IMG/VR virus record: IMGVR_UViG_3300045988_183163
Length of the DNA stretch: 64,000 bases
Source: a virus
Reading direction: 5' to 3' (one strand)
The number at the start of each line of letters is the position of its first letter. The stretch's first letter is position 1. Below are positions 11,540 through 59,814 of this stretch, piece by piece. Position numbers and translations under genes: made by a program. Below the pieces are notes generated by a model. That model had not been told where the DNA came from. It was given only the letters and a program-made list of their open reading frames with translations, and ran no database searches.

Positions 11540-12802
11540 TCACCTTCTTTCTGTAATATAATTTGTTGCGACTTCTAGTAGCCGCATTTTTTTGTAGGAC
11601 GCGCTATTAGAAACAACAGTACCGTCCAATTTTTTAAGAGCGAAGTATCCAGAAGTTCGTCTGCCTGTGATAAAGCATTCTGAGCCATTATAGGATACTT
11701 TGTCCCAAAGACGATAACCCTTTACGGTGTACGGAGCTTGATTAGCCTTGCGTATACCACCTTTTAGGATAGTTGCTTTGTGCAGCTGTCTGTTATGGTG
11801 GCGTATAGCCTTCGTGTAGTAGCAAGTATCGCAAGGTATGGCCAATGGGTTCTTGCTAATGCAGCGTGCATCGTTGGTGTGACTTTTAGGAATACTATGC
11901 TTCTCACGCAAGTACTTGGTTATGTAGCCATAAGTCCCTTGTACCGGAATCTTCAGCTCTTTAAGCAAGCGTTCCATAAGTGTCTTACGCATAACCCCCA
12001 TAAAAGCTGCATCTTTGAGAGACCTGCCACGTTTTTTGCCGTCAAGTGTTACTTTTCCAGCGTGTAGAGCTTTATGGCAAGCTGTGCATAGCGTGATAAG
12101 GTTGTTTGGCGCATTGCCACCTGTTCTACGGGTCTCGATATGATGCACATGCAGCTTTACAGCTTTTGTTTTTGTTGGATGCGCACCGCAGCATTGGCAC
12201 GTATAATTGTCACGCTTTAACACATACTGGCGTACATTGTACTCATCGTACATTTCACCAAGCTGATAGTCTGTGCCTACCGGCAGAGGTTTACCTTCCA
12301 GCATTGCTTTTAGACGTTGTGTGTCAAACTCTGCTGTTTCTACTCTGACGAACGTAACAGGCAAAATACGACATACTCGCTTGATAAGCGTAATGTGTTC
12401 TTGAATCTTGACCTCCACTGATGGCGCTAACCAGCCCTTATGCTTGCTATGCACTCTGTTGTTGAAACGCGGCGCACGGTAACGGGTTTTGCGGTTTCGC
12501 CTGCTGCGTCTGAAAGCACGGCGTGCAGAAAGCAAATCAACCACATCATTGCGTGGAGTTGCCTCTTCGCAATAGAGTTCGTACTTTTCAGTGGCAGCAG
12601 ATATGCCAATATGTTTGCTGCCTGCATCTACGCCCAAAGTAATAGGTTGTTTGTATCCTGTACTTCCATACAGGAGCTTGATTGTAAACGGTGTGCGTTT
12701 TACAACGCATGCTTTCTTCTGCTTTAACAATAAGCGAGCCTTGCGTGGAGAGCACGGCATCAAAGGTTCGCCGTGTTTGTTAAGCACATACACATATTGC
12801 AT
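11540..12802 (-). CDS. iscB: IscB, OMEGA RNA-guided nuclease (PLMP, split RuvC, HNH domains)
   Basis: PLMP motif HGEPLMPCSPRKARLL; RuvC-I LGVDAGSKHIG; Arg-rich bridge helix RRAFRRSRRNRKTRYR; RuvC-II VRVETAEFD; HNH CQCCG...HHIE...NLITLCTACH; RuvC-III SHTNDARC. 420 aa; RBS AAGGAG. Confidence 0.8.
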   Translation of the reverse strand: MQYVYVLNKHGEPLMPCSPRKARLLLKQKKACVVKRTPFTIKLLYGSTGYKQPITLGVDAGSKHIGISAATEKYELYCEEATPRNDVVDLLSARRAFRRSRRNRKTRYRAPRFNNRVHSKHKGWLAPSVEVKIQEHITLIKRVCRILPVTFVRVETAEFDTQRLKAMLEGKPLPVGTDYQLGEMYDEYNVRQYVLKRDNYTCQCCGAHPTKTKAVKLHVHHIETRRTGGNAPNNLITLCTACHKALHAGKVTLDGKKRGRSLKDAAFMGVMRKTLMERLLKELKIPVQGTYGYITKYLREKHSIPKSHTNDARCISKNPLAIPCDTCYYTKAIRHHNRQLHKATILKGGIRKANQAPYTVKGYRLWDKVSYNGSECFITGRRTSGYFALKKLDGTVVSNSASYKKMRLLEVATNYITERR

Positions 12803-13091: not shown

Positions 13092-13111
13092 CCCGCGACT
13101 TTAGTCGTGGG

Positions 13112-19825: not shown

Positions 19826-19978
19826 TGATGTTTCCTCCTGAAATAAAAAAAATAGCAGGCCCTCAAGAATCGAGAGTCTGCGTTGTTCGCACGATGAATC
19901 ATTCATTCGAGTGTGTTTTTATCGTGTAGTTGATATTTTGTTTGGCTTGTACACGTAGCCAGCCCAAACAGACATCGT

Positions 19979-20553: not shown

Positions 20554-20566
20554 TGTTTTTGGAGCG

Positions 20567-23603: not shown

Positions 23604-23831
23604 CGGAAAGCGTTAAATGGTAACAGTTTATACACATTCTTTTGCAATTGACATTCTCCCCCGCCTAAGCCCAACGGCTATAGACGGGGTACTCTGCCTT
23701 CAAATTTCATAGATGAATTAGTGGCAAATGAAGGGACTTTTGCTTCCTGGACAATTTTGTTGCTTTGCTGTATGATTAAAGTACAACAATTAGGGCAATA
23801 CAAAAATCGATAACGGCGAGGTACTAACAAG

Positions 23832-24203
23832 ATGGACGCGACAATGCAGACGGTTCTCCGGCTCCATGAGCAAGGTATACCTAGAAGAACCATTGCCAAA
23901 CGTGCAGGCATCTCATTGCAGAAAGTGCGCAAAATACTGATTACGGCCGGGGCCTGGTCAGATGAAACATCAGAAAAAATCGGGAAGCTGCGTGCGAACG
24001 GTATGTCAGTTCCTGAAATTGCAGAAGAATTGGGTGTAAAAACCAATACTGTTTGGAGCTATTTGCCATACAGCAAAGGCATGTATAATCAAGAATATCC
24101 GACCATTAACGCCATTCGAGTCCGAAATTCGAAGCGAAAAGCAAAAGAAAAAGCCCTCACCTGCACGGATACCGCACAGAATGAGGGCAGTGGCGCTTGC
24201 TGA
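23832..24203 (+). CDS. helix-turn-helix DNA-binding protein (two HTH-like segments)
   Basis: IAKRAGISLQKVRKIL and MSVPEIAEELGVKTNTVWSYL. It is the only plus-strand gene in the first 50 kb. Confidence 0.45.
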   Translation: MDATMQTVLRLHEQGIPRRTIAKRAGISLQKVRKILITAGAWSDETSEKIGKLRANGMSVPEIAEELGVKTNTVWSYLPYSKGMYNQEYPTINAIRVRNSKRKAKEKALTCTDTAQNEGSGAC

Positions 24204-24278
24204 AGGATTCGAACCTTCGGACAGTCTCCCATCGTCGGTTTTCTGGACCGATTTCATCAACCACTCGAACAAGCAAGC
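24191..24278 (-). tRNA. type-II tRNA, Ser-like, with non-canonical anticodon loop CCAGAAA (C33; anticodon reads AGA)
   Basis: Acceptor GCUUGCU/AGCAAGC, G73, CCA encoded, T arm GAAGG-UUCGAAU-CCUUC, long variable arm, anticodon stem UCGGU/ACCGA. Confidence 0.5.
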
Positions 24279-24282
24279 AGAT

Positions 24283-24371
24283 GGCGCAGAGGGTGAGATT
24301 CGAACTCACATGCCGCGATTTCCGCGACGGCAGCTTAGCAAGCTGCTGCCCTACCGTTAGGCGACCTCTGC
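24283..24371 (-). tRNA. tRNA-Ser(GCU)
   Basis: Acceptor GCAGAGG, D stem 3 bp, anticodon arm GCAGC-UUGCUAA-GCUGC, long variable arm, T arm GUGAG-UUCGAAU-CUCAC, G73, CCA. Confidence 0.75.
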
Positions 24372-24403
24372 ATAATGCACCTTTTAACGTAGGTGCGACG
24401 TAG

Positions 24404-24478
24404 TGACCCCTGGCAGACTCGAACTGCCGACTTCAGCTTGAGAGGCTGGCGACTTGGACCAACTTGTCGAAGGGGCCT
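24404..24478 (-). tRNA. tRNA-Glu(CUC)
   Basis: Overall E. coli tRNA-Glu-like architecture; anticodon loop CUCUCAA; T arm GGCAG-UUCGAGU-CUGCC; A73; no CCA encoded. Confidence 0.65.
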
Positions 24479-24481
24479 TAT

Positions 24482-24565
24482 GGTGTGCCGGGCTGGATTC
24501 GAACCAGCGAACCGAAACGGAGCGGTTTTACAGACCGCCTGCTTTAACCTCTTGCATACCGACAC
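24482..24565 (-). tRNA. tRNA-Tyr(GUA)
   Basis: Type II; anticodon arm GCGGU-CUGUAAA-ACCGC; long variable arm; T arm GCUGG-UUCGAAU-CCAGC; A73; CCA. Confidence 0.75.
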
Positions 24566-24568
24566 ATA

Positions 24569-24644
24569 TGGTGCTCCCGGCCGGAATCGAACCAGCGACA
24601 CGCGGTTCTTCAGACCGCTGCTCTACCAACTGAGCTACAGAAGC
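24569..24644 (-). tRNA. tRNA-Phe(GAA)
   Basis: D arm GCUC-AGUUGGUAG-AGC; anticodon arm GCGGU-CUGAAGA-ACCGC; T loop UUCGAUU; A73; CCA. Confidence 0.8.
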
Positions 24645-24645
24645 A

Positions 24646-24725
24646 TGGTGACCCGTGTGGGTTTCGAACCCACAATAACCTCCGCCGTGAAAGGGCGGCA
24701 ACTCTACCAATTCGTCCAACGGGCC
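24646..24725 (-). tRNA. tRNA-Glu(UUC)
   Basis: Anticodon arm CCGCC-CUUUCAC-GGCGG, the same as E. coli tRNA-Glu; T arm GUGGG-UUCGAAA-CCCAC; G73; CCA. Confidence 0.65.
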
Positions 24726-24754
24726 ATATATAGCCGCAATCCTGCGGCGAGGGT

Positions 24755-24976
24755 TTATGCGATGACAAGGATGTCATCTATCTTGGTATCCAGCATCGCT
24801 GCCAATATCACAAGGTTGTCGATGGTGGGGAGCGCTGTTCCAGCTTGCCATTTGGCAACTGCCTGCGTGGATACGCCGAGTGTATCTGCCACATCTTTCA
24901 CCTTGATACCTGCTGCCTTTCGCAGTGTCTTAATGTTGGCACCAGTTTTCTGAATATCAATAGTAGGAACGTTCAT
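24755..24976 (-). CDS. XRE-family helix-turn-helix transcriptional regulator (Cro/CI-type)
   Basis: 73 aa; IKTLRKAAGIKVKDVADTLGVSTQAVAKWQAG matches the HTH_3 pattern. Confidence 0.7.
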   Translation of the reverse strand: MNVPTIDIQKTGANIKTLRKAAGIKVKDVADTLGVSTQAVAKWQAGTALPTIDNLVILAAMLDTKIDDILVIA

Positions 24977-25344
24977 TTTTTCTTGCTGCCTTTCTGTATT
25001 GCAGGCAACAAAAAAGCTGCCTGCCGAAATCTCGACAAGCAGCTATGACATGCAGTTATCGCTTAGAAGACGCACCGCATCTGTACATGGTCTGTTTTTG
25101 CCTGTCGAGGAGTATGAGAAATAAAACTGCGTTCATAAGAGCTGAACTCAGATTCATAACTATACTCATACGACATTACATTAACAGTGTTGCACAGCAT
25201 TTTGGGGTATCTCCTTTCGTTTCGTTCTGATATTATTATAGCATGTTTTTGCACATTTGCAATCAACTTGTGGTTTAGTTTTTTGGTCTGTATACTCTCC
25301 AAAACAAAAAGCCGCCTCTTATGTGAGGACGGCTTTTCTTATTG

Positions 25345-25420
25345 TGGCAGGGGTAACACGACTCGAACATGCAACACGCGGTTTTGGAGACCGCTGCTCT
25401 ACCACTTGAGCTACACCCCT
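25345..25420 (-). tRNA. tRNA-Trp(CCA)
   Basis: Anticodon arm GCGGU-CUCCAAA-ACCGC; D arm GCUC-AAGUGGUAG-AGC; G73; CCA. Confidence 0.75.
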
Positions 25421-25427
25421 ATATAGA

Positions 25428-25492
25428 TACTCCAGTTGGGAGTCGAACCCAGAGTAAAACGGGACTTAAAGCCGCCGCGTTTGCCAGTTTCG
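25428..25492 (-). tRNA. aberrant tRNA-like sequence (acceptor, D and T arms fold; no regular anticodon arm; loop region contains UUUAAGU)
   Basis: Acceptor GCUCCAG/CUGGAGU (G1-U72), D arm GCG-AAACUGGCAAA-CGC, T arm CUGGG-UUCGACU-CCCAA, A73. The anticodon region GGCGGCUUUAAGUCCCGUU cannot form a 5-bp stem. Confidence 0.35.
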
Positions 25493-25505
25493 CCACTGGA
25501 GCATA

Positions 25506-25581
25506 TGGCGGGTTGTACAGGGTTTGAACCTGCGGCCCACGGATTAACGGTCCGTTGCTCTACCAGCTGAGCTAACAACCC
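25506..25581 (-). tRNA. tRNA-Asn(GUU) with C33 (loop CCGUUAA)
   Basis: Anticodon arm ACGGA-CCGUUAA-UCCGU (E. coli Asn has CUGUUAA); T arm GCAGG-UUCAAAC-CCUGU; G73; CCA. Confidence 0.65.
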
Positions 25582-25610
25582 ATAAATGGCAGTTGTTGTA
25601 CTGCCGGACA

Positions 25611-25688
25611 TGGTACTCCCCGAGGGATTCGAACCCTCAAAACGGTGCGGTTTGAGCGCACTGTGTCTGCCAATTTCACCAGAGGAGC
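25611..25688 (-). tRNA. type-I tRNA with anticodon CAA (Leu-like decoding, A73, short variable loop)
   Basis: Anticodon arm GUGCG-CUCAAAC-CGCAC; T arm GAGGG-UUCGAAU-CCCUC; acceptor GCUCCUC/GGGGAGU; CCA. Confidence 0.5.
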
Positions 25689-25691
25689 TTA

Positions 25692-25767
25692 TGGCGGGCG
25701 TAGCAGGATTTGAACCTGCGACAAACGGATTAACGGTCCGCCGCTCTGCCTACTGAGCTATACACCC
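25692..25767 (-). tRNA. tRNA-Asn(GUU) with C33, second copy
   Basis: Anticodon arm GCGGA-CCGUUAA-UCCGU; T arm GCAGG-UUCAAAU-CCUGC; G73; CCA. Confidence 0.65.
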
Positions 25768-25798
25768 ACAAAAGTGGCAGATAATGCTCTGCCGGGCA

Positions 25799-25874
25799 TG
25801 GTGCGCTCGCGGGAAATCGAATCCCGAACACCCCGATTAAAAGTCGGGTACTCTACCGATTGAGTTACGAGCAC
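25799..25874 (-). tRNA. tRNA-Lys(UUU)
   Basis: Anticodon arm CCCGA-CUUUUAA-UCGGG; T arm CGGGA-UUCGAUU-UCCCG; A73; CCA. Confidence 0.75.
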
Positions 25875-26138
25875 TTGTCGCGCATCTTCCGTGCCATGCT
25901 TATGGGAACACAGCTTTGAGGAATCTCACTTCCGATGCGCATGAAAGTGAGCGTTGGCCGAGAATGGTCGAGTCGAACAACCGTTGTCAGGGTGAATCCT
26001 CCCACGACTAAAGTCGCGGGCTTCCCCTCTTTTAAGGAGAGGAACTTGCTAACGAAATGGTACAGCAATCCCTCAGCAAGTAAGTCCCGAAGAACAAACT
26101 CACCGCAAGAAAGCTAATTGTCACAGTTAGCCTACATC

Positions 26139-27080
26139 TTACGCTGCCTGTGTACTGAGTTTTTTGAGCTCAGGATACAGAACTTTAAGCGTGGCAAGTG
26201 TAACTTGGATTCTACGCTCAACATCCGGAACATTAGCCGAAAACTGAGACCTTACCATCGCTGGCAAGGGTTTTAGCAACTCTCTGACAAAGTAGCGAGC
26301 GCCAATATTGTAGCTCGCACTTAGGTCGCAGTTGTATTGTTTGCCGCTTGCAAACGTTGCAAGGGCACGATTGGTTTCATCACGCTCAAGAGCACCACTG
26401 CCATCAAAGGCGAGTTTGCTTGTGCCCCAAGCGCAGATACGCGAAATCCGGATACCACAGCGGTGTGCCTTCTGTGTCACATAATCCTGTATGGAATTAC
26501 GTTTCCACATTGTCAGCTTTTGTGCTTTACTGCCGCCGTGCTTTTTGCCTGTAAATGACAAATGTTCAAAAACAATCACATCTACAGAATAAAGCACAGC
26601 AAATTCAGTAATCGCAGCAGCAACCTTTTTCGCTATATCGTTATTCAAGGCTTTGGCGTAACGCCACATAGCTGCGGCGCTGTTGGAACCGTGCTCCCTT
26701 TGCTTACGCTTGATACGGTTAAGCACATGATACAGATGGTCTTTTTCACTCGGAAAATTGATAAATTTTCTTGCAAGGACAGTTCCATCGGCAGTCATGA
26801 TGCTGCACACGGCGTCAGTATTGAGACCAAGGTCTACAGCGCAGATACGCCTGTCTTGAATTTCAGTTTCAGAGAGTTCTACCTTCTCCACGAAAGCGAA
26901 GCGGAGAAAATATTTTCCGTACTTCTTTTCGAGGGAGGGAGCGCTCTTTTCGCAATGTGACCAGTATTTCGTGATGTATTTGACATCGGTGGCACGCATT
27001 GCAATAGGAATCCAAACCCAGTCATTGTTTTTATACAGCTTCAGATAGCACTGGTTTGGTTTGTTGCTTTCCTCATACAT
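26139..27080 (-). pseudogene. tnpB: TnpB-like (RuvC-I ICAVDLGLN, RuvC-II VIVFEHL, RuvC-III NCDLSASYNIGARY), lacking about 100 N-terminal residues and the CxxC...CxxC zinc finger
   Basis: 313-aa ORF. A 400-nt gap to tnpA has no ORF of 60 aa or more, while the frame stays open upstream of the first ATG. The zinc-finger cysteines are replaced (CAWGTSKLAFDGS). Confidence 0.5.
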
Positions 27081-27488
27081 AACGGTCTTATAAAAAGCCG
27101 GGAAGCAAAATCTATCGCATTGAAGTTTTGGCTCCCTGTCAACCTTGCCGTTTGCTTCCCAGTTCTTATGGCTACTGTAGTAGCTGCTTACAGAGCCGAG
27201 TGCTGCTTGAATAGCCGCTCTGCGCAGGTAACTAGGGAACTTATAAAACTTGGCATCGAAATCATATTTAGCAGTGCTGTATTTTGTAGTATGAATTAAC
27301 TTCTCGGCAAAACTCTTTCGAGATTTGGCACCCTCTACTTTTTGAATAGAATCCCATTCTTTGTTAAATCAACCAATCAAGAAAGAAACGGCTTCGCGAT
27401 AAATCTTTATAGTATTGTCGAACATTTTCTGCTTTTTGATTTCCACAGCATAGCTGGAAGTGATTTTCACTGCGAAGCCCCCCTTTCA

Positions 27489-27869
27489 TCAGTTTCTTAT
27501 TTTTTGAGATGCAATGTATTCTTGTACTTGTTTGCGCGTGTTATCACTGACGGTTGCAATAAAGTAGCTTGGGTTCCAAAGATGCCCGCCCCAAAGTTGC
27601 TTCTTCAAGTCCGGATTGGCGATAAAAATAGCTCTTGCACTGTTGCCTTTAAGCACTTTTATCATATCCGGGATAAAATGCTGCGGTGAACACTCCACCA
27701 ACAGGTGAATATGGTCAGGCATGCATTCCATTTCTACAATATTGATTTTTATGGTTTCGGCGGTCTGCTGCAGAGACTCTTTTAGCGATTGTTCCGTTTC
27801 GTTTGTCAAAGCCTGATGCCTTACCGTCTGGCGAATCCTCGAATATACATTATGTATAATAGCATACAC
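27489..27869 (-). CDS. tnpA: IS200/IS605 family Y1 (HuH) transposase TnpA
   Basis: 126 aa; HuH motif MPDHIHLLVE; C-terminal region LKGNSARAIF...GHLWNPSYFIATV with the catalytic Tyr region. Confidence 0.7.
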   Translation of the reverse strand: MYAIIHNVYSRIRQTVRHQALTNETEQSLKESLQQTAETIKINIVEMECMPDHIHLLVECSPQHFIPDMIKVLKGNSARAIFIANPDLKKQLWGGHLWNPSYFIATVSDNTRKQVQEYIASQKIRN

Positions 27870-28486
27870 TTTAATAAGCCTGGCTGGAATTCACTCCAGC
27901 GGCATTAGAGTGACCTGATTCTGATTTTCTGCATCAAAAAAGCACCCATCAGGCGTTGTGCGTCTGACAGGTGCTCATATCGTGCAGAGTATGGAAAACA
28001 ACCGATACTTGGATGATTTTATTCAACCATCACTGCACTATGATTTGCACAAACAGACAACACAAAACAGCTGAAGAGATTCCAATTGCTCCACAGCTTT
28101 TGCAATTTATTCTGTTTGTTCATCATAGCAGCAAACATCGTGCAGTTTTCCTTTCATCAAATTCAGCGTCTTAATTATACAATATGTAAAAGCCAAAGTC
28201 AAGGCTTTTCGTAAAAATAATGGCAGGCCCGTGCTCATTGTTCGACCGGTCTCCAAGCAGCAATCCGCGCTATTGCATTCGAGAACGGTATGTCCTCACA
28301 CGAACACAACTCGCTTAAAGCCTTAGCCATCCTGGACTCATAGTCAGCCAAAGCCAGGTCGATGGGCACCGTGATTGCAGCAGAGTCATCTGGCGTTTCC
28401 AGAACGGGAGTCCTGGTATTTTCACCTGGCATTCCCTCTTGACACCACTCACAAAAACAAAAAGCCGGGAAACCCCGGCAAAAATT

Positions 28487-28575
28487 TGGCGGTCAGAGTG
28501 GGATTCGAACCCACGGACGTTTTTGGCGTCGCTGGTTTTCAAGACCAGTTCCTTAAACCACTCGGACATCTGACC
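28487..28575 (-). tRNA. tRNA-Ser(UGA)
   Basis: Type II; anticodon arm CUGGU-CUUGAAA-ACCAG; T arm GUGGG-UUCGAAU-CCCAC; G73; CCA. Confidence 0.8.
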
Positions 28576-28658
28576 ACAAAAGGATGGGGCGGGACCGAAA
28601 TCCCGCCCCATAGCAAGGAGAAAAAACTATCGATTACCGTTAGTTAGAGGATGGCAAA

Positions 28659-29792
28659 TTAGTGGATGCCCAGGGAAGCGGCATAAGCAGCTTCACGAGC
28701 GGCAACCTGTGCCTGCAGAGCAGCGATGGAAGCGGCATAAGCGGCTTCACGCTTTTCAGCAGCAGCCTGAGCTTCAGAGGTAGAAGCGTACTGGGGCTCG
28801 TTGCCAGCCAGAGTACCAGCATAGCCCTTGACGCCATCAGCGCCCTTAACAGTCAGGACTTCATGACCACAATGGTCACAGACGTAAACGTTACCCTTGC
28901 GGGTCCAGTTGTGATAGCCACAGCTGGTACAGACGGTGTACTCATTGCCCCAGGTGCCATTGGCAATAGCGGCGGCAATTTCACCGTGCTCAGAGACTTC
29001 AACGTTCTTGCGAGGAGCGGTCGGAGTAGTGGTGGTAGTACCGTTGCCCTTGTTGGAGCCGGTAGAAGTGTTGTCCTTACCGGTGTTGTCCTTATCGGGG
29101 GCCACTACGTCGCCCTTGTCATCGGGAGTGGTGGTGCCGTTGTCACCGGTATTGTCACCAGTGTTGTCGTCCTTATCGTCGGGTTTGGTAACATCACCCT
29201 TGTCATCGCCCTTGTTGTCATCCTTGCCGTCGTCGGGAGTGGATGCAGAAGTGGCTTTCAGGGTCAGGACGTTGTCGTGGATGTCGTCGCCCAGGTAGTA
29301 GAACAGGCGGTCATGGTTCAGGCTCTTGCTGGATGCGGTGTAAGTATCACCGGAATCCGTGGTCCAGGCTTCAACACTCTGACCATCAACACTGCCCGGG
29401 AAAGTGGCGGTGTCAGTCTCGGTCAGCACCGTGTTGCCGTCAATCTGGTAGTTGATGGTGATGGAACGCGGATTGCCCTCAGCCGCATAGCAGGAAGTGA
29501 TGCCGTCAGCGGTGAACCACTGGTCAACTGCATCGTACGGCAGAGTGTCGCCGGGATAGTAGTTGTAGGTATACCCGCCATGGCCTTGCAGGGTAATCCA
29601 GTAGCCGTAGTCATACTGACTTGCCGGGAACGTCATAGAGCCGCCCGGAGCCAGGTCCTGGGAAGAACCATTGCTGAAAGAGAAATGGTAGGTGTCACCG
29701 GTGGCTGCGAACGCTGCGACAGGCAGACAAGTTGCCATCATACCGGCTGCTGCAATCCCTGCGATTGCTTTCATGATTTTCTGATTGCTCAT
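28659..29792 (-). CDS. secreted Asp/Gly/Thr-rich protein with a C-terminal zinc-ribbon
   Basis: Signal peptide MSNQKIMKAIAGIAAAGMMATCLPVAAFA; low-complexity DDKGD repeats; CTSCG...CDHCGHEV zinc-ribbon. The antisense 388-aa ORF is rejected. Confidence 0.55.
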   Translation of the reverse strand: MSNQKIMKAIAGIAAAGMMATCLPVAAFAATGDTYHFSFSNGSSQDLAPGGSMTFPASQYDYGYWITLQGHGGYTYNYYPGDTLPYDAVDQWFTADGITSCYAAEGNPRSITINYQIDGNTVLTETDTATFPGSVDGQSVEAWTTDSGDTYTASSKSLNHDRLFYYLGDDIHDNVLTLKATSASTPDDGKDDNKGDDKGDVTKPDDKDDNTGDNTGDNGTTTPDDKGDVVAPDKDNTGKDNTSTGSNKGNGTTTTTPTAPRKNVEVSEHGEIAAAIANGTWGNEYTVCTSCGYHNWTRKGNVYVCDHCGHEVLTVKGADGVKGYAGTLAGNEPQYASTSEAQAAAEKREAAYAASIAALQAQVAAREAAYAASLGIH

Positions 29793-29894
29793 GCTGTGTA
29801 CTCCTTTGTTCTTTTAATTTTTTTATGATTATCTATCTGCATTTATTCAGATACCGATTTAAGGAGAAATCAGCCGCAGCTTTGCTGCGTTGCC

Positions 29895-29935
29895 CACCAT
29901 CCGCCGCGTGGAGGCTTTCTCATGGATGGTTGACG
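29895..29935 (-). promoter_or_regulatory. structured motif copy 1 (stem CCATCC/GGATGG around AGCCTCCACGCGGC, then TGGGCAAC)
   Basis: One of three copies with compensatory stem changes; it lies in the leader of gene 28659..29792. Confidence 0.4.
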
Positions 29936-30154
29936 AAGCAGATATGTGCTTCGCCAGTGCCGCAACCGTCTTCGCCACTCGACACAATTTCGGTTTGAAT
30001 TTATCCCCGTAAAATCGCATGTCCATGCTGCGCGGAGAGGATAAAATTCTTCGTGGTATGGTTTCGGAGTTCCGCGCCTGATTGGCCGTACTACACGCAA
30101 TGCAGTACAATACCCCAGATACCTTTGGCGGAAGGAAGCGAAAGGGTGTCTGGA

Positions 30155-30230
30155 TGGAGAAGGGAGATGGCCTCGAACCATCGATACCCTGCTTTGCGGC
30201 AGGTGCTTTATCCAGCTAAGCTATCCCTCC
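30155..30230 (-). tRNA. tRNA-Cys(GCA)-like with a 6-nt anticodon loop CGCAAA (U33 absent)
   Basis: Acceptor GGAGGGA/UCCCUUC, U73 (typical of Cys), D arm GCUU-AGCUGGAUAA-AGC, T arm GAUGG-UUCGAGG-CCAUC, anticodon stem CCUGC/GCAGG. Confidence 0.45.
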
Positions 30231-30260
30231 ATGATGGCGGGTCAAGCCCGCCAAATAGCG

Positions 30261-30644
30261 TTACGCAAACTGGAAGTCGCCGTACTGAGTCACGGCGCGT
30301 TCCAGGCGCAGAGGAATGGTTTTTGTGCTCTTCTGAGTGATGTCCTCGCGTGCTACCTGAGCTTCACTCACGCCAGCCGCCTGCAGGACTTCATACAGAT
30401 TGGAAGGACCAGTACCAGCATAACCACAGGTCAAGCCATTAACCTGAAGCGTGAAGCCGTGCAGATGCGGTGCCAAACCGGGAACGAAATCGAGTTCAAC
30501 AATGACCTCGTCGCTCTTGTCGTTTACACGGTTGACAGCGATGGCGCGGATGTTCCGGTTGCCAAACATTTCAATCAGCTTTTTTGCCGCTGCAGCGGTT
30601 TCTATGGTAGTCGTACCTTCAACATTGATAATTGCCTGTTCCAT
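30261..30644 (-). CDS. hypothetical protein
   Basis: Start at MEQAIINVEG (RBS AGGAAGGAG). The longer ORF-track version runs through tRNA-Thr and is rejected. Confidence 0.45.
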   Translation of the reverse strand: MEQAIINVEGTTTIETAAAAKKLIEMFGNRNIRAIAVNRVNDKSDEVIVELDFVPGLAPHLHGFTLQVNGLTCGYAGTGPSNLYEVLQAAGVSEAQVAREDITQKSTKTIPLRLERAVTQYGDFQFA

Positions 30645-30685
30645 AGAATTCATCTCCTTCCTATTATCGCTTAATTTGGTGATGG

Positions 30686-30758
30686 GGCTTGATGGCAGGT
30701 TCGAACTGCCGACCTGCGCGTTACGAATGCGCTGCTCTACCAACTGAGCTAATCGAGC
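30686..30758 (-). tRNA. tRNA-Thr(CGU)
   Basis: Anticodon arm GCGCA-UUCGUAA-UGCGC; D arm GCUC-AGUUGGUAG-AGC; T arm GGCAG-UUCGAAC-CUGCC; no CCA encoded. Confidence 0.7.
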
Positions 30759-31030
30759 ACGATAGGGTGTTTTATGCTGGTCACCCCTTGAGCGAGAAGC
30801 CAACTCGCATCCAGCACCATTCGGCAGCCACGCCGATAGATTCTGTATTGTACCCTCTTCACCGTTTTCCGGTCTTATTCGCGACTAACACCGGGACTTT
30901 CGAATACTTTCAGGCACAGCACCTGTTTGTCTATTATTTTTGAGGCTGTCTCATCGACATTCGGACAGCGGACCACAAGTGGACCATGCTCACCAAGTTT
31001 AACGTCGTGGCGTACGGTGACTGCGACGTG

Positions 31031-31105
31031 TGGAGCAAGTAGCGGGGGTCGAACCCGCGTCTCCGCCTTGGAGGGGCGGAGTATTAGCCGTTATACGATA
31101 CCTGC
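31031..31105 (-). tRNA. tRNA-Gly(UCC) with C33 (loop CCUCCAA)
   Basis: D arm GUAU-AACGGCUA-AUAC as in E. coli Gly(UCC); anticodon arm CCGCC-CCUCCAA-GGCGG; U73; CCA. Confidence 0.6.
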
Positions 31106-31581
31106 ATAAGATTGCGGGTGAACCCTCACTTAGCCCCGCCATGACATCCGTTTAGTAGGTCGTCATCCCCGGATGTCATCTTCACACCACCTGACAATCT
31201 TGCGAACCTCATCGTTGACGATACGCGAGAATCCAAGAAAGCGCTTGGGTGTTGGTCAACTTCAAATTTTGAGCCCTGTCGTTGATTCCCTGTCAAATCG
31301 GGTTAACGGTTGTCGTTGGGCTGTGTGTGAGACTGCAGCGAAACTTACCAGTTGCCGTGCAGCAATCTCGCCTTTACGGCTGTGTCGCGTCTGGATGCGC
31401 CCCGACTTGACGGGGATGCTCGTACGTTTGCATGCTTCTAAGACATTCGTCAGCAGCCGCAAGAGCCGCTGTCCGCCACCCGCCACGAGGAGGCCGCCTT
31501 AATGGGTGGCATGCTGTCCGCCAGATGTTGTGTATAGCATCGTATCATGTGATTTCGATACATCCAACGGATAGCGTCTGG

Positions 31582-31654
31582 AGCTGGAAATCGGACTTGA
31601 ACCGATGACCGACTGATTACAAATCAGTTGCTCTACCAGCTGAGCTAAACCAGC
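31582..31654 (-). tRNA. tRNA-Thr(UGU)
   Basis: Anticodon arm ACUGA-UUUGUAA-UCAGU; T arm AUCGG-UUCAAGU-CCGAU; two U-U mismatches at the base of the acceptor stem. Confidence 0.6.
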
Positions 31655-31696
31655 AAATACAAACATTAGCCAGATGCCCGGAACACGGAAACATCT

Positions 31697-31735
31697 GTTG
31701 CCCACCGTCCGCCGCGTGGAGGCTGTTTGCTTGGA
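31697..31735 (-). promoter_or_regulatory. structured motif copy 2 (stem CCGTCC/GGACGG around AGCCTCCACGCGGC, then TGGGCAAC)
   Basis: Lies immediately 5' of tRNA-Thr(UGU) on the minus strand. Confidence 0.4.
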
Positions 31736-32026
31736 CGGCTGGCGCGGAGTTACCCGCGCCAAATGGGAAATAAAGAGGTATGAAAGGAAGGATATTACTA
31801 TGAAACGGATGATTTTCACGCTTCACCTGTGTCAGCTCAAATGAAGCCATGCGACCAAGATTGGGGAAAGGAAAACCTTGATGTCTCAGGAGCCGTTCCT
31901 CTTCCTGAGAACAATTGTATTATACCATATATGTGGTATCCGGTCAATGAAAAGACACAATATATAGTGTCTAAATTGTAAACAAACATTAAGATACCAC
32001 TATATCTAGTGGTTGGGGCAAGCGCA

Positions 32027-33066: not shown

Positions 33067-33879
33067 CTAGTGGACAGTGGTGTGACCATCCACATCCACA
33101 CCGACGCAATACGCATCGACATAGTCATTGTTGGTTACCTCCATTTCGTTGAGCTTTTTGAGCCATTTCGTTTTGACGATGTGTTCCAAGTAATCCGCAT
33201 TATATTTGGGATTCGATGAAATCACAGAGAACGGTCTACCAAGCTCTTTCTCTCTCAATTCTTCCGTTTCCCGCATTTTTTCAAGCATATACCGGAAATT
33301 TTCGGGGTAGTATTTATAGAGATAGGCAAAGTTAAGAAACGAGGACATCGGGCAATACATACAACCGCAGCGCTTGTTGGTTTTGTAGTAGTTGTTGAAA
33401 ATAGGCTGTGTCTTTGCCCATTCCAAAATCACATCTTCGTTAATGCCGTTTTCTGCGAGAGGGTATATCTCTAACTTTTTGGCACTCAACCGCTTGTTGA
33501 AACGGCGTTCTTCGTCGGCACAATAGCCTATGTAATTTACTACATAAAAACCGACTTCGTTCAGCCATTCGGATAGTTGCCGCTTTGCATCAAGTTTATA
33601 GTGACCGTTACACCATCTTACTTTTCTTGTTGGGAAACCGCATTTATCATACAATTCTTCCCACGTTTTCCTCGGCTTGATTCGCACAAATTGGATGCCA
33701 GCTCGCTTGCACTCCGTTTCCATATAGTCGATAACGTTATGTATAAACGGGTAGTCGATTTCGAGTTCAAAGTGAACCACGCCGTCAAGCGGGTATCTGT
33801 CCAGATTGTGCAGTATGTAATTGAGCATATACAGGCTATCTTTTCCGCCAGATACGCTTGCCCAGTATGATGGGCGCAA
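33067..33879 (-). CDS. PAPS-reductase / DndC-like PP-loop ATP pyrophosphatase family protein
   Basis: PP-loop SGGKDS near the N-terminus; 270 aa; C-terminal Cys cluster CGCMYCP. Confidence 0.65.
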   Translation of the reverse strand: MRPSYWASVSGGKDSLYMLNYILHNLDRYPLDGVVHFELEIDYPFIHNVIDYMETECKRAGIQFVRIKPRKTWEELYDKCGFPTRKVRWCNGHYKLDAKRQLSEWLNEVGFYVVNYIGYCADEERRFNKRLSAKKLEIYPLAENGINEDVILEWAKTQPIFNNYYKTNKRCGCMYCPMSSFLNFAYLYKYYPENFRYMLEKMRETEELREKELGRPFSVISSNPKYNADYLEHIVKTKWLKKLNEMEVTNNDYVDAYCVGVDVDGHTTVH

Positions 33880-33898
33880 TGCAATTGCTTTGTCTGCG

Positions 33899-34099
33899 TT
33901 AGTTATCGTTCGTTACCTCCGTTCTGTGATTCCACAACTCAATCGCGTCCTGTTCGTTTTTTATGAGGACAGTTCCGATGCGGCAGTAGTTGCACCGCAC
34001 TGCATACATGCCTTCATAGCTTGCATATAACCCGGCTGTAGAACCACAGAACGGGCAAGGCTTTAGTTCGATATCATCATCATCAATAAACGTTACCAT
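33899..34099 (-). CDS. Lar-family restriction alleviation-like zinc-ribbon protein
   Basis: 66 aa; LKPCPFCGS...VRCNYCRIG matches the Lar family CPFCG...C..C pattern. Confidence 0.55.
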   Translation of the reverse strand: MVTFIDDDDIELKPCPFCGSTAGLYASYEGMYAVRCNYCRIGTVLIKNEQDAIELWNHRTEVTNDN

Positions 34100-34284
34100 T
34101 GTCGGTTACCTCCGTGAGCCAGTAGTCTTTGCGGCACTCTCGATAAAAAAGCCCACACTGAACTGGGTAGAACTTCTTATTTTGATTTTCTTAGATGTGT
34201 GGGAACACCTCATATACGCTGACATACAGCATCCCCGGTTTATAATCCGCATATTCTACCGGACGCTTCTGGTCGTAGGCTTTG

Positions 34285-35680
34285 ACATTGACACACTCCC
34301 ACGATTAAAATCGTGGGATTCTACTTCAACGAGGCCGCTGGCTGACCCAGTCTTACGCCTCTCGGTAACGGCATGGTGCCCCATCCGTGAGAGTATTTTT
34401 ACGCAGTGTAGCCCGTTTGAGTTAATCCCATACGGCATATATTGATAGCTGCATTGACGTCTCTTTCGTGGTGCGTGCCGCAAGATGGGCAATTCCACTG
34501 CCGCTGCTTGAGTGTGAGCTTCGGGTAGATGTACCCGCAGCGACTGCAGCACTTGCTGGATGGAGCGAAACGGTCAATTTTCACGACCTCCGTGCCACAG
34601 TTGGATGTTGTCCACTCAAGGATTTTGACAAACTCACCAAACGCTATATCATTGATTTTGCGTCCCCAGAGTTTTTGCATCCCTGCAAGATTTAAGTTTT
34701 CAATGCAGATGATAGCGTAATCCGCTATCAGTTGGTAAGCAACCTTAAAGAACCAATCGGTGCGTTGGTTACATATTTTTCGATAGATACGTTCCAACTC
34801 TTTAATTGCTTTCTTACGGTTATTACTTCCCGGCTTACAGCGTGAAATATGTCTTTGCACTCGCTGCAGCTCTTTCAGAGAGGCTTTATACCATTCAGGG
34901 GAATCTATCACGCTGCCGTCATCCAAGTTGAGGAAGTGCTTCAAGCCAAAATCCATCCCGACAGCTTTACCTGCTCGTGGAAGAATTTCATTACATTCCT
35001 CTTGGGTGACGACAAAGAGGTAGACATCACCTAAATTGTCGCGCTTGACGGTTAAGGTTTTCACTTTACCCTTCAAAGGACGAGAATCGAAATAGCGATA
35101 CTTCTTACCATTGATGGTGACGCTGCCTTTGCCGTCAAACTTATAGCCTGCCTGTTTGAGCGTGAAGCTTTTATACATCTCGCGCTTCTTAAATTTCGGC
35201 AGCGACTTCTTGGTAGGATGCGCCTTTTTCTTATTATCAAAATAGGCTTTATAGGCGCGGTCAACGCGCTCCACCACATCCTGAATAGCTTGGCTGCCAA
35301 GATTGTGCCAGTGACCCCACTTGCGGCGCTTGCAGATTTTAGCAATGTACTTTTTCAAATCATTGGCTTTAAGCGTTTTGCCATAGACCAAATAGTACAT
35401 ACGCCGCATAGCAATGCAAAAATTCCAAATCTCGGAGGCTATTTCTATCTGCTGAACAAGATACTTGTTCTTCTTGTTGTTATACAGTTTGTACTTGTAG
35501 GTTTTCATTACAAGACGAATGAGTAGTAGCCTCCTTTTCTTTAGAATCTACTATCTATGGTACGCAATTCGCACGCTTTGACAGCAAAAAATGCTGTCCA
35601 TCTTGCGGATATGCAGCGTGAATTGATTCGTTCTTAACGCCTTTCATCCCACGACTAAAGTCGTGGGTTTTCCCGGCTTG
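34285..35680 (-). mobile_element. IS200/IS605-like element carrying tnpB only
   Basis: LE hairpin CCCACGACTAAAGTCGTGGG at 35648..35667 and RE hairpin CCCACGATTAAAATCGTGGG at 34298..34317 flank an intact tnpB. Confidence 0.65.
34399..35508 (-). CDS. tnpB: TnpB (RuvC-like RNA-guided nuclease, IS605 OrfB family)
   Basis: 369 aa; N-terminus MKTYKYKLYNN; RuvC-I GMDFGLK; RuvC-II IICIENL; zinc finger CSRCG...CPSCG; RuvC-III HERDVNAAINI. Its omega-RNA is expected to overlap the 3' end and RE (about 34290..34520). Confidence 0.8.
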   Translation of the reverse strand: MKTYKYKLYNNKKNKYLVQQIEIASEIWNFCIAMRRMYYLVYGKTLKANDLKKYIAKICKRRKWGHWHNLGSQAIQDVVERVDRAYKAYFDNKKKAHPTKKSLPKFKKREMYKSFTLKQAGYKFDGKGSVTINGKKYRYFDSRPLKGKVKTLTVKRDNLGDVYLFVVTQEECNEILPRAGKAVGMDFGLKHFLNLDDGSVIDSPEWYKASLKELQRVQRHISRCKPGSNNRKKAIKELERIYRKICNQRTDWFFKVAYQLIADYAIICIENLNLAGMQKLWGRKINDIAFGEFVKILEWTTSNCGTEVVKIDRFAPSSKCCSRCGYIYPKLTLKQRQWNCPSCGTHHERDVNAAINICRMGLTQTGYTA

Positions 35681-35858
35681 TTTTTATAAAATCGACGTGA
35701 GTTTTGAACTTCTGCTCGTCACCTCCACGATGCGCTTCAATGAGTTTCCCAATCGTGACAACGTTGATTTGGTTCATGCTTTTTTCCTCTCTTTCTACTA
35801 CAATTATACTCTTCCGCTGAACTGAAATGTGATTTTTTGTCGATTGTTAGCGGAAAAT

Positions 35859-36650
35859 TCATAATTTGAAAGGGCAAAAGCTGAACGTTGGGACGTCTGA
35901 ATTCGGGTTCTCAACCTGGTATTTAATGACTCTTTTTTGCGCCCCTAAAGCCTTGTATGTCTGCTCAGCATTCACGCATAAGCCGTTGGCAAAGAAGAGA
36001 GTGGAACCATTGCGTTCACTGATATTTTCGGCAGAATACATTTTTGGCTTTCTGATTCCGGGGTCGAGATGAATTCCACCGCGCATCAGCTTTTCAGCAT
36101 AGAACCAGACATCAACGCGGGAGAAAATGTAAAGCAGCTGCGTGGTTCTGAAATAATAGAGAATCTGGTCCGCACCACTCCTGTATACCCAGCCCGGGGT
36201 GTGCCATAAAGGGTCGATGCCATCCCGATACCGCCGCGCTACCCGCTGTTCGTTCAGAGCGTCAGGCACCATGGAGAAGTAGTCCACCGAGGTTTCCAGG
36301 TAGAAATTTCCGGTATTGTGACTGTCCACTTTCGCTTCCAGGCCAAAGGTCTTACCATTCTTCTTCCAGACAATGAAATCGGTATCTTTGTCTTGATATG
36401 ATTTATCCTGAGTCACGTCATCGTAATGGCTAATGCCATGATTCACTTTGATAATCGGGTCGTTAAGGAATTTGCGAGCCAAGTCTTCTCCGAATTTTCC
36501 CTCATCGAGTTGCTTGGACATCTTAAACTGACGAGGGCTTTCTTCCCAGGCTATCATACTTTTACACGGCATCTGCCGAATTTTCAGGCAGCTGCGATAC
36601 GATATGTGTAACGATACGTTCTGTACAGGCATTGACAGCGGCCCCGTCAA
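35859..36650 (-). CDS. PD-(D/E)xK-like nuclease-fold protein (start uncertain; possibly 36521)
   Basis: Motif DTDFIVWKK...GLEAKVD is consistent with a restriction-endonuclease-like fold. Confidence 0.4.
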   Translation of the reverse strand: MTGPLSMPVQNVSLHISYRSCLKIRQMPCKSMIAWEESPRQFKMSKQLDEGKFGEDLARKFLNDPIIKVNHGISHYDDVTQDKSYQDKDTDFIVWKKNGKTFGLEAKVDSHNTGNFYLETSVDYFSMVPDALNEQRVARRYRDGIDPLWHTPGWVYRSGADQILYYFRTTQLLYIFSRVDVWFYAEKLMRGGIHLDPGIRKPKMYSAENISERNGSTLFFANGLCVNAEQTYKALGAQKRVIKYQVENPNSDVPTFSFCPFKL

Positions 36651-36907: not shown

Positions 36908-37360
36908 TTATTTGCCCGCTTGCTTTTTCAGCTTATCCCTCGTTTCCATGAGAATGATTCCGAGCCGATTCTGACCTGGGATGTTCTGGCATTTCGGGCA
37001 GTGGCAGTTGCCCCAGTAATTGTCATGCCAGCTGGTCGTGTCTTCCTCAATAGGCTGCGTACCCGTTTCGAGGAGGCGCTGTTTGAGGTCCTCATTCTGC
37101 TCGAATTTGGCCATCACCACGCGGCGCATTACATCGTCCCGGGTTTCGTCCCAGTTGGCAGGAAAAGCCACATGACGGCCAAAATGCTTAGCCGTTGCCG
37201 GAGGCATGTCTGAAAATTGTTTGCGCTCTTCCAGCGGAACCTTGTGGCTCTGAAACGCTGCTTCGGCATTCTTGTAACGAATCCCATCCATCACGAATTC
37301 GCAAGGATAATAGTTACTCATAAACCAGTAGCGAGGGGTATCTTTTCTGAATCGAATCAT
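36908..37360 (-). CDS. NADAR-family protein (YbiA-like, DUF1768)
   Basis: 150 aa; hallmark WGNC...G.N.LG..LM..R segment (YWGNCHCPKCQNIPGQNRLGIILMETR) and the N-terminal MSNYYPCEF...AEAAFQ. Confidence 0.65.
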   Translation of the reverse strand: MIRFRKDTPRYWFMSNYYPCEFVMDGIRYKNAEAAFQSHKVPLEERKQFSDMPPATAKHFGRHVAFPANWDETRDDVMRRVVMAKFEQNEDLKQRLLETGTQPIEEDTTSWHDNYWGNCHCPKCQNIPGQNRLGIILMETRDKLKKQAGK

Positions 37361-42103: not shown

Positions 42104-42991
42104 TCAGTAAATAAACTTGCATTCCCGGCGTTCCCGGCCATTGCCGCACCAGTAATGCCGCCAGCGGGGAGTTTTGCCTTCCCCATTCTTTTTGTATTCT
42201 TTGGCCGCATTCTCACCAACGGTATATGTCTTGACGTTGATTCGCTGTGCCTTTCCCTGAAACACGAATACCGGGCGGTCACGCTTTTTGGAAGTTTCCA
42301 AGCAGACATCAGGGTTCTTGCTGGCAAGATAGTTGGCGCACAGGATTGCCAGCCGGACATAAGGTGTGCCGCCGTCAAAGACCGAAGGGACTGCTTCCAT
42401 CACAGCCGGTACGCTGATACCATTTACTTGCCGCTGCCCTGCTGCCTTTTCCAGGTATTCTTTCGTGCTCCGAGTTGCTTCCGTCAAACTCTGATTTTCC
42501 TTGGCCCAGGCAGGCAGAGTCAGGAACGTGAAATCATCGTGGCTGCCCTTAGTGGGGCCGACAAGAACGATACCGAAAGCTGTGGTTTTCTCTTTTTCGT
42601 CGAATTCCACATGCACGAACATACCGTTGTAGTCGTAGCTGTCATACACCGGGATAAAGAAATCACGAACCGGGAGTCGCTGCAGGATATCCTGATGAAT
42701 TGCCACGTCATCCGTATCCATCAGCATTTTCTGAAACTCGTAGTCAAAATCATAGACCGTCTTCGTCTGATTCCAGCAGCCAATGGTAAAGCAGGGAAAA
42801 ATCTGCGCAGCCAAAACACGCTCAAAACCCGGCGTGTTCATTCTCTGCGCCGCTGTCATGCAGCACAGCATCGCGGACTTGTTGTATTCTTCCAGCGTTT
42901 TTCCACACGGGTCACTGAATCCAAAATGGTTTCGGGTTTGTTTGGTAACGGCATTCGCCGTCAATGCGATTCTCAGCTGTTCATTGGTCAT
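42104..42991 (-). CDS. hypothetical protein, paralog family A (second copy)
   Basis: 295 aa; shares RLPVRDF..., MFVHVEFD, KTYTVG and HYWCGNGR motifs with 21552..22628. Confidence 0.55.
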   Translation of the reverse strand: MTNEQLRIALTANAVTKQTRNHFGFSDPCGKTLEEYNKSAMLCCMTAAQRMNTPGFERVLAAQIFPCFTIGCWNQTKTVYDFDYEFQKMLMDTDDVAIHQDILQRLPVRDFFIPVYDSYDYNGMFVHVEFDEKEKTTAFGIVLVGPTKGSHDDFTFLTLPAWAKENQSLTEATRSTKEYLEKAAGQRQVNGISVPAVMEAVPSVFDGGTPYVRLAILCANYLASKNPDVCLETSKKRDRPVFVFQGKAQRINVKTYTVGENAAKEYKKNGEGKTPRWRHYWCGNGRERRECKFIY

Positions 42992-45656: not shown

Positions 45657-45711
45657 AGGGCACTTCTTCCTTCCGTCTCAAAGACAATTTGCCGGGACTG
45701 TCTCCCGTTGC

Positions 45712-45745
45712 CCGCTGCTCGCCGCGTGGAGGCTGTCTTTTGGAG
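45712..45745 (-). promoter_or_regulatory. structured motif copy 3 (stem GCTGCTC/GAGCAGC around AGCCTCCACGCGGC, then GGGCAAC)
   Basis: Lies between the VWA gene stop and the next gene. Confidence 0.4.
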
Positions 45746-45775
45746 CAGCTGCGCGGACAAAACCGCGCTTTTGAG

Positions 45776-59740: not shown

Positions 59741-59814
59741 GCAAGGTTCATCGCCAAATCGTGTCTGAAACAGCGAGTTATGCGGTTTCCCATCATACGC
59801 TACGGGTGTAGCGC

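Follow-up and report, generated by a model that had tools for sequence, protein, structure and literature searches.

How does a gene for a TnpB nuclease come to lie between two matched hairpins in a phage genome, and what kind of element is it when no transposase gene stands beside it? The question is raised by a locus in the IMG/VR virus record IMGVR_UViG_3300045988_183163, of which a stretch of 64,000 nucleotides (the window) was analysed. Here we describe the exact ends of this element, its nuclease, its predicted guide RNA and its relationship to other elements of the same phage and of related phages. With high confidence, we interpret positions 34288-35685 (minus strand, 1,398 bp) as an IS200/IS605-family insertion sequence of the non-autonomous kind, carried by a large human-gut phage. 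The cargo is limited to tnpB and a guide-RNA scaffold, which follows the tnpB stop codon and runs into the right end (RE). The element has exact ends set by hairpins, is inserted at TTAT without target duplication, occurs as copies at multiple sites, encodes a protein under purifying selection and carries a conserved RNA structure.

The ends were set by comparison with TnpB-less relatives (loci L011-L014, L016, L019 and L020). The homology of these element-free loci with the window has its two limits at 34288 (RE side) and 35686 (left-end side). The empty site of L013 is uninterrupted and reads GATTTTAT/TGTCAAAGCCTACGA, or onward GATTTTAT/TGTCAAAGCCTACGAAGAG, where the slash marks the point of insertion. 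In gene orientation the window reads ...GATTTTAT/AAAAACAAGCCGGGAAAA, the left end (LE) hairpin, tnpB, GAAT, the RE hairpin and AGTGTGTCAA/TGTCAAAGCCTACGA.... Because the homology of the relatives breaks at these positions and L013 reads without interruption, the element is assigned to 34288-35685, inserted 3' of TTTAT with no target-site duplication. In a second copy of the element, found in L017/L018, homology with the window is lost at 34287. A preliminary description of the locus had given the extent as 34285-35680, bracketed by matched hairpins. The element itself was correctly recognised and related genomes indeed have their boundaries just outside both hairpins, but the true ends, 34288 and 35685, lie 10 and 18 nt outside the RE and LE hairpins respectively.

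The ends have the organisation typical of the family. The target, which is also the transposon-adjacent motif (TAM), is TTTAT with the core TTAT; it occupies 35686..35690 (minus strand) in the flanking DNA outside the element and is defined by L013 and 13 sites. The left end starts with the 18 nt AAAAACAAGCCGGGAAAA (35668..35685, minus strand), bounded at 35686 where homology with the element-free relatives stops. The last four of these, AAAA (35668-35671, minus strand), are the presumed DNA guide G_L for the TTAT cleavage or target site. The LE subterminal hairpin CCCACGACTAAAGTCGTGGG follows (35648..35667, minus strand), with an 8-bp stem and the top-strand loop CTTTAG. At the other end GAAT (34318-34321) precedes the RE subterminal hairpin CCCACGATTAAAATCGTGGG (34298..34317, minus strand; top-strand loop TTTTAA), and the tail AGTGTGTCAA (34288..34297, minus strand) ends after TCAA (...GTCAA), 10 nt from the hairpin foot. 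Counted from the hairpin feet, the cleavage positions lie 18 nt to the 5' side at the LE and 10 nt to the 3' side at the RE. As DNA the hairpins fold with -9.2 kcal/mol (LE, z=-3.0) and -9.4 kcal/mol (RE, z=-5.5). The matching of the two holds: they lie in direct orientation on the same strand, with 88% identity over 24 nt, and in dinucleotide-preserving shuffles of the window the expected number of motif matches is 0.00. There are no terminal inverted repeats at the element ends; subterminal same-strand hairpins, as in other IS200/IS605 elements, are found instead.

Copies of the element are found at many other sites. We identified 26 related loci in IMG/VR, with protein identities of 64-97%. 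When no flank was imposed, every copy with a recognisable LE was preceded by TTAT (as TTTAT, CTTAT or ATTAT), at 10 or more distinct sites. Every RE of the IMG/VR copies ends in GAAT, the hairpin and AGTGTGTCAA, followed by unrelated DNA, and the tail is identical at all sites. Over all loci, 13 distinct insertion sites were independently retrieved, all after TTAT, and precise empty alleles are known for three of them. These are the window's own site (empty in L013), the L028/L017 site GGTCTTAT/TTTTTGCACAATACTTACC (uninterrupted in L001, L004 and L006) and a site for which the window itself has the unoccupied target, CTGCTATTTTTTTTAT/TTCAGGAGGAAACATC at 19827..19858 (minus strand), where L033 carries a copy. 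A scan of metagenomes with an LE probe brought the total to 27 distinct left flanks, with all four bases at position -5; the probe contained TTAT, so the added sites are no evidence for the motif. Some copies are 96-97% identical in protein and stand at different sites of closely related phages.

The hairpins also vary with the TnpB lineage. In L042 and L044, relatives with 64% identity, the stems are altered (CCCACGGTC.. and CCCCCTGCC..), and within each of these loci the LE and RE hairpins match each other, as expected if a cognate transposase reads the hairpins. A TTAT target goes with AAAA immediately 5' of the LE hairpin (the window type and L042), and a TTAC target with AAAG (L048 and L054). 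L044, which has TAAA with TTAT, fits this four-base guide rule less well. Two further kinds of derivative were observed. The reverse strand of L157 contains a 152-bp PATE-like miniature, in which the LE (44 nt) is fused to the stretch that runs from past the stop codon through the RE, with no tnpB; it is inserted after ATTAT and would need TnpB in trans. When L142 and L143 are compared with L021 and L136, the left and right flanks of the copies come from different insertion sites; in L142 the left flank is that of the window and the right flank that of L021. Such chimeric flanks suggest recombination between element copies, or deletions abutting the RE.

The tnpB gene (34399..35508, minus strand) encodes 369 amino acids. 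As initially proposed, the protein is complete, with RuvC I, II and III and a CxxC...CxxC zinc finger, and the check for a TnpB profile match succeeded well above the gathering scores of both Pfam families: OrfB_IS605 (PF01385; 2.6e-21, 76.5 bits, cut-off 30.5) and Cas12f1-like_TNB (PF07282; 1.4e-20, 73.6 bits, cut-off 26.3). Residues 3-365 align with 7-377 of ISDra2 TnpB (PDB 8bf8, 8exa and 8h1j; E=2.5e-44), and the motifs line up with those of a TnpB-derived nuclease and of ISDra2 TnpB. The RuvC triad is intact (D185 in GMDFG, E269 in ICIE and D349 in RDVNAA) and, like the zinc-finger cysteines C320, C323, C339 and C342, it is invariant among relatives that are 64-92% identical. By analogy, the protein would be capable of RNA-guided, TAM-dependent cleavage of double-stranded DNA. 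The ratio of non-synonymous to synonymous substitution (dN/dS) between the window tnpB and nine other phage copies is 0.06-0.18, with dS up to 0.87, and the reading frame is intact in all phage copies. Purifying selection has therefore kept the nuclease through a long residence in the phage group. Upstream of the gene, at 35509-35535 (minus strand), a probable ancestral ATG lies four codons before the present start, well spaced from a GGAGG, and reads ATT in the window; L017 and L018 retain the 373-amino-acid form.

The identical TnpB protein is present on at least 20 metagenome contigs with a constant gene order (232-amino-acid gene, 40-amino-acid open reading frame (ORF), TnpB, Lar), and TnpB homologues are found in 302 deposited phage records. 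The nearest copies in bacterial assemblies have 63% identity (a Clostridiales metagenome-assembled genome, MAG) and 61% identity (Anaerotruncus colihominis). The exception is a 96%-identical copy on a short MAG contig, which is probably phage DNA.

The guide-RNA (omega RNA or reRNA) scaffold is about 100 nt long, at ~34288..34400 (minus strand), and is delimited by covariation, a covariance model and the miniature element. An alignment (A3) of the 130 nt up to the RE was made from 36 diverse relatives with TnpB identity down to ~43%, drawn from phage copies, Clostridia, Negativicutes, cyanobacteria, Chloroflexota and Poribacteria. The RNAalifold prediction comprises four helices and 23 pairs, with compensatory changes in 17 of the pairs. 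Stem A (~34369-34388) carries a GGCA loop (GGGGCAUC-type across the alignment). Stem B (34331-34335 with 34357-34360) encloses a conserved GUAAGAC and the small hairpin stem C (34338-34341 with 34347-34350). Stem D is the RE hairpin itself, and is followed by the invariant tail AGUAUGUCAA, which is AGUGUGUCAA in the window. On this structure 92.7% of the cells are paired, against 37-58% when the partners are slid, and the covariation score is 0.638 against at most 0.14 for controls; none of 500 shuffles attains the observed values.

A covariance model (R1) built from A3 matches the window at 34288-34412 (88 bits, E=3e-25) and gives a single match at the tnpB 3' end in 47 of 49 held-out loci. 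The window RNA by itself folds with -45.9 kcal/mol (z=-2.9), and the 152-bp miniature retains exactly the scaffold stretch, which delimits the scaffold independently. Across phyla, the structure of the scaffold is conserved. An omega RNA at the RE had been anticipated, and the covariance search indeed places the scaffold against the RE, but the suggested extent of about 34290..34520, overlapping the 3' end of tnpB, was too long; the supported scaffold, ~34288-34400, lies almost wholly downstream of the tnpB stop codon.

By the architecture of ISDra2 and ISGst2, the flanking DNA read through from the scaffold would serve as the guide, which gives the predicted 16-nt guide TGTCAAAGCCTACGAC (34272..34287, minus strand). 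Both TAM and guide could thus be read from the locus, as the preliminary description had expected. The first 15 nt of the predicted guide are the sequence that follows TTTAT in the empty site of L013, with 15 of 16 positions matching. In the window TTAT plus guide is matched at a single place, the RE junction of the element itself, and there two positions depart from the TAM (TCAA in place of TTAT); the element is therefore not targeting itself. The guides differ at every insertion site, being whatever DNA flanks the RE.

The hairpins were first taken to bracket this one element. They do bracket it, but they are not exclusive to it: when up to three mismatches are allowed, the window contains six copies of the hairpin, at 13092, 20525, 26001, 34298, 35648 and 59705, always in intergenic DNA. 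Each copy is part of an IS200/IS605-type feature, and they are therefore not generic phage terminators. The copy at 13092 forms the 5' stem of a HEARO RNA (Rfam RF02033, 91.6 bits; 12879-13119, minus strand) upstream of a gene for a 420-amino-acid IscB (11540..12802, minus strand), identified by its RRXRR and HNH domain matches. Its orientation relative to the gene is opposite to that of the TnpB element. A 38-nt copy of the HEARO 5' end, consisting of GTCAATAA, the hairpin (20525) and CTTGCGTCAG, lies isolated at 20517-20554 between two minus-strand genes and without the remainder of the RNA. Right-end-like remnants with no nuclease gene are found at 59696-59735 (minus strand; GGAAT-CCCACGATTTCAATCGTGGG-AGGTGTCAA, hairpin 59705) and at 23648-23700 (minus strand; CCCCG..CGGGG-AGAATGTCAA). 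The guide-RNA model gives a weak RE-only match of 15 bits at 59696-59839 and a weak match of 13 bits at the second remnant. A second complete guide-RNA scaffold at 59705 or 26001 was considered and rejected, as the model gives the weak RE-only match at 59696-59839 and hairpin-only matches elsewhere. A second HEARO RNA without IscB (50197-50457, minus strand; 84.8 bits, above the gathering score) stands directly upstream of a 547-amino-acid flotillin/SPFH (Band_7) gene (48496-50139, minus strand), and is either an orphan guide RNA or a remnant.

The hairpin at 26001-26020 ends a module of tnpA and a TnpB-like gene, tnpB' (25997-27869, minus strand), and lies ~120 nt downstream of the TnpB-like ORF, which is itself preceded by a Y1 transposase gene. 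The TnpB element had been called stand-alone, and this is correct for the element itself, but the tnpA module is only 6.4 kb away and has the same hairpin at its end. The tnpA gene (27489..27869, minus strand) encodes a Y1 (HUH) transposase of 126 amino acids (Pfam Y1_Tnp, 2.9e-32), a candidate trans-acting transposase. Residues 16-123 match ISDra2 TnpA (PDB 2xm3; E=4.3e-36), and both the HUH motif (HIH) and a C-terminal tyrosine region are present. This gene is a possible source of transposase for the TnpB element. The frames upstream of it look decayed, and an LE hairpin or recognisable LE upstream of the module was looked for with none found. The TnpB-like gene of the module has an in-frame TGA at 27369-27371 in the window, and is intact (443 amino acids, PF27142) in L127-L132. 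In L001 a 1.8-kb segment is missing, which begins within tnpA, after TTGAC, and stops 9 nt beyond the RE hairpin.

Four known systems help to place the element. It resembles ISGst2/GstTnpB2 of Geobacillus stearothermophilus, an IS605-family element with the guide RNA at the RE. The experimentally determined TAM of GstTnpB2 is TTTAT, and the ISGst2 right-end motif differs from the TAM at two positions (bioRxiv 10.1101/2023.03.14.532601). Most ISGst2 copies lack tnpA and are mobilised in trans, RNA-only PATE miniatures exist, and tnpA is absent from most tnpB elements in general (bioRxiv 10.1101/2023.03.14.532601). This likeness is one of architecture and TAM. Unlike ISGst2, the window element resides in a large gut phage, and no base beyond the TTAT core is fixed (T, C, A and G all occur at position -5). 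ISDra2 TnpB shares homology over the full length, the same domain order, the same catalytic residues and an reRNA drawn from the 3' part of tnpB together with the RE. However, ISDra2 is autonomous (tnpA and tnpB) and has the target TTGAT, whereas the window element has no tnpA, has the target TTAT and has a scaffold almost entirely downstream of the stop codon. The ISDra2-like TnpA and the TTGAC-type site belong to the tnpA-tnpB' module and not to the TnpB element.

In IS608 of Helicobacter pylori, the LE is cut about 19 nt before its hairpin and the RE 10 nt beyond its own, with TCAA as the right-end cleavage site, and a 4-nt DNA guide 5' of the hairpin foot pairs as AAAG/TTAC (PMC3201880). 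The window element has a similar 18/10 nt geometry and a TCAA right end, and its AAAA/TTAT mirrors AAAG/TTAC; it differs in the target (TTAT, not TTAC) and in having no tnpA. HEARO/IscB belongs to the same OMEGA superfamily, and in the window the HEARO 5' stem is the same hairpin. It differs in the nuclease (IscB, with RuvC and HNH), in the position of the RNA (at the LE, upstream of the gene) and in the reversed hairpin orientation.

A mechanism can be proposed with IS608, ISDra2 and ISGst2 as models. A Y1 transposase acting in trans, and encoded by the phage tnpA at 27489..27869 or by a host copy, would bind the hairpins in single-stranded DNA. It would cut after TTAT at the left and after ...GTCAA at the right, and the top strand would be moved as a circle ('peel and paste'). 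The predicted circle junction is ..GTGTGTCAA/AAAAACAAGCC.., that is, GGGAGTGTGTCAA/AAAAACAAGCCGGG, and the predicted donor joint is GATTTTAT/TGTCAAAGCC. Transcription through the right end would produce an RNA whose last ~16 nt (TGTCAAAGCCTACGAC) are flanking DNA. TnpB loaded with this RNA would cut any site with TTAT plus guide, namely the empty allele, and recombination would then restore or spread the element. In a phage the empty allele could be a sister genome copy or a co-infecting relative, for example of the L013 type. The occupied site would be immune because TCAA stands in place of TTAT.

Several points weigh against the view of a mobile, non-autonomous element with a guide RNA. No tnpA is found between 34288 and 35685, so that the element is not an autonomous form of the IS200/IS605 family. 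The phage TnpA is non-canonical, being ~14 residues shorter than ISDra2 TnpA at the N-terminus, and may be inactive. The first 21 tnpA codons fall outside the segment missing in L001, and the tnpA-tnpB' module seems to use TTGAC, not TTAT. The probable ancestral start of tnpB has changed from ATG to ATT in the window copy, as seen by eye. An Rfam search of 33500-36500 at E<=1 returned no family for a TnpB RNA, and the guide RNA is a prediction from DNA sequence. The evidence for mobility is comparative and historical throughout.

Alternatively, the element could be a molecular fossil in this phage, intact but immobile for want of a working transposase, and inherited vertically, perhaps with TnpB-mediated homing. 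We regard this as a minority possibility, although the most credible of the alternatives. The absence of tnpA from the element is consistent with it, as is the only tnpA in the window, with its short, odd N-terminus and no recognisable LE. So is the finding that all 18 loci occupied at the window's site share the same insertion and the same deletion (described below), which points to one old event. However, the 13 to 27 distinct sites in close relatives and the 96-97% identical copies elsewhere indicate that transposition continued in the lineage, and a host could supply TnpA; moreover, the 64 kb of the window are a fraction of the genome, which measures at least 200 kb. Recruitment of TnpB by the phage, as a TldR-like RNA-guided repressor or a fixed anti-competitor nuclease that no longer moves, is far less probable. 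Phage-encoded TnpB derivatives with host-directed functions are known (PMC10705468, PMC13418256), and the gene lies in an accessory region adjoining a Lar-like gene. Yet the D-E-D triad is intact, the guide differs at every site, the two transposon ends have been conserved and precise empty alleles are known. Membership in TldR was rejected on the intact RuvC triad and on guides that are site-specific rather than conserved.

The hairpins might instead be a phage-wide regulatory repeat (terminators or RNA-processing sites) with tnpB merely caught between two of them. This would agree with six intergenic copies in the window and with a consensus scan in which 34297-34318 is terminator-like on the plus strand. 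It becomes very hard to maintain when all copies belong to the TnpB LE or RE, the 5' stem of HEARO, the right end of the tnpA-tnpB' module or remnants. The hairpins also accompany tnpB wherever it has moved and change in step with the TnpB lineage, the same arrangement is present in bacteria of several phyla, and on the minus strand, which carries the genes, the hairpin is not followed by a T-run. Least likely of all, to the point of being negligible, is a miniature type V CRISPR effector of the Cas12f type. The PADLOC Cas12f models do match (1.1e-52), a consequence of the descent of Cas12f from TnpB. No repeat array lies within 28-42 kb, the closest structural relatives are TnpB proteins, and transposon ends and TAM-defined insertion are present. 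Type V-F CRISPR-Cas membership was rejected, as an adjacent CRISPR array was not found. The non-autonomous IS200/IS605 element remains the interpretation that we adopt in what follows.

The insertion locus has a history of its own. The element had been described as landing between a Lar-like anti-restriction gene and a nuclease-fold gene, and it does stand between Lar and this neighbour, but not by a simple landing. It is inserted into a gene of 142 amino acids that relatives carry in intact form. The truncated N-terminus of this gene survives as a 40-amino-acid ORF (35655..35777, minus strand) that runs into the LE, with its TAG stop in the hairpin loop. Past the RE the window has 15 nt of the original target and then the last ~80 nt of a 155-amino-acid gene that relatives have upstream of Lar; comparison with the relatives identifies this remnant 3' end at 34190..34272 (minus strand). 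The jump from the target to the end of the 155-amino-acid gene therefore marks a 1.37-kb deletion, three genes' worth of DNA, which removed the rest of the 142-amino-acid gene, a 226-amino-acid gene and most of the 155-amino-acid gene. A three-way comparison of the window, L013 and L012 reveals a TACGA microhomology at the junction (34273..34277, minus strand), and the joined sequences share TACGA and 16 of 22 positions around it. An occupied but undeleted allele at the window's site was not found in IMG/VR (only two known contigs).

The start of the deletion, 10-15 nt beyond the RE, coincides with the far limit of the segment that matches the guide, and ISDra2 TnpB is reported to cut at roughly such a distance. 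If the deletion were a scar of TnpB cleavage, it would be a natural record of this nuclease shaping a phage genome. Two points count against this idea: the clean pairs of empty and occupied alleles at two other sites have no such deletion, and the imperfect repeat alone could account for the position. We rate an origin as a TnpB repair scar as unlikely. The broader proposal, in which the element is an RNA-guided homing or competition device of the phage lineage and the deletion perhaps a microhomology-repair scar of a TnpB cut, is likewise doubtful in our judgement. Here a co-infecting TnpB-less genome of the L013 type, whose intact 142-amino-acid gene is matched by the guide, would be cut by TnpB and then converted or killed. 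A co-conversion tract was sought, and identity around the element in relatives is ~99% throughout, a uniformity that makes the comparison uninformative.

The same interval is variable in the relatives. A 465-amino-acid IscB-like gene (RRXRR) lies between the 142- and 226-amino-acid genes in L011, L013, L014, L019 and L020, and is absent in L012 and L016 (about 2800-4760 in locus coordinates); this short interval has therefore been struck by both TnpB and IscB elements. Of the neighbours named in the preliminary description, the Lar-like gene is upheld (Pfam 1.6e-12, PHROG 599). The nuclease fold attributed to the other (35859..36650; 232/263 amino acids) finds no support: sequence searches of Pfam, PHROGs, PADLOC and the PDB gave no match, and all that inspection reveals is a D..EAK motif. 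A NADAR-domain gene is nearby (ORF 36908..37360). In L002 the 295-amino-acid orthologue of the window ORF 42104..42991 is assigned to an AcrVA2-like family in a precomputed Pfam record, and this match was not reproduced by scans of the window ORF itself. Of the accessory, anti-defence setting first suggested, 'variable accessory' is a fair description, given the IscB insertion of the relatives, and 'anti-defence' is plausible.

Several features of the wider window concern the phage and its host. The identical Lar protein is recorded in 3,648 index blocks, with contigs up to 0.2-1 Mb, and the phage group is therefore very common. Seventeen tRNA genes lie in arrays at 24191-31654, all on the minus strand; ARAGORN leaves the anticodon of one (30155-30230) undetermined. 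Matches above the gathering score to the hepatitis delta virus (HDV)-like ribozyme family RF02682, first described in Faecalibacterium prausnitzii, are present at 45680-45749 and 31659-31739 (both minus strand). The two F. prausnitzii-type ribozymes and the Clostridia affinities are only hints to the host. A megablast search with the region gave no match in INPHARED phages or in E. coli genomes.

Non-autonomous TnpB elements and their guide RNAs are already well understood and TnpB is common in phages, so the category is not new. Notable are the crowding of OMEGA-type elements in a single phage region and the unusual completeness of the case, which offers ends, TAM, guide, RNA scaffold, dozens of sites, a miniature derivative, a candidate transposase and IscB/HEARO. 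The compact TnpB of 369 amino acids, with a known TAM and a scaffold of ~100 nt, is a candidate for testing as an editor. To our knowledge, 'non-restorative homing' has so far mostly been proposed rather than shown, and these phages may offer a convenient natural system for TnpB-guided homing between co-infecting genomes.

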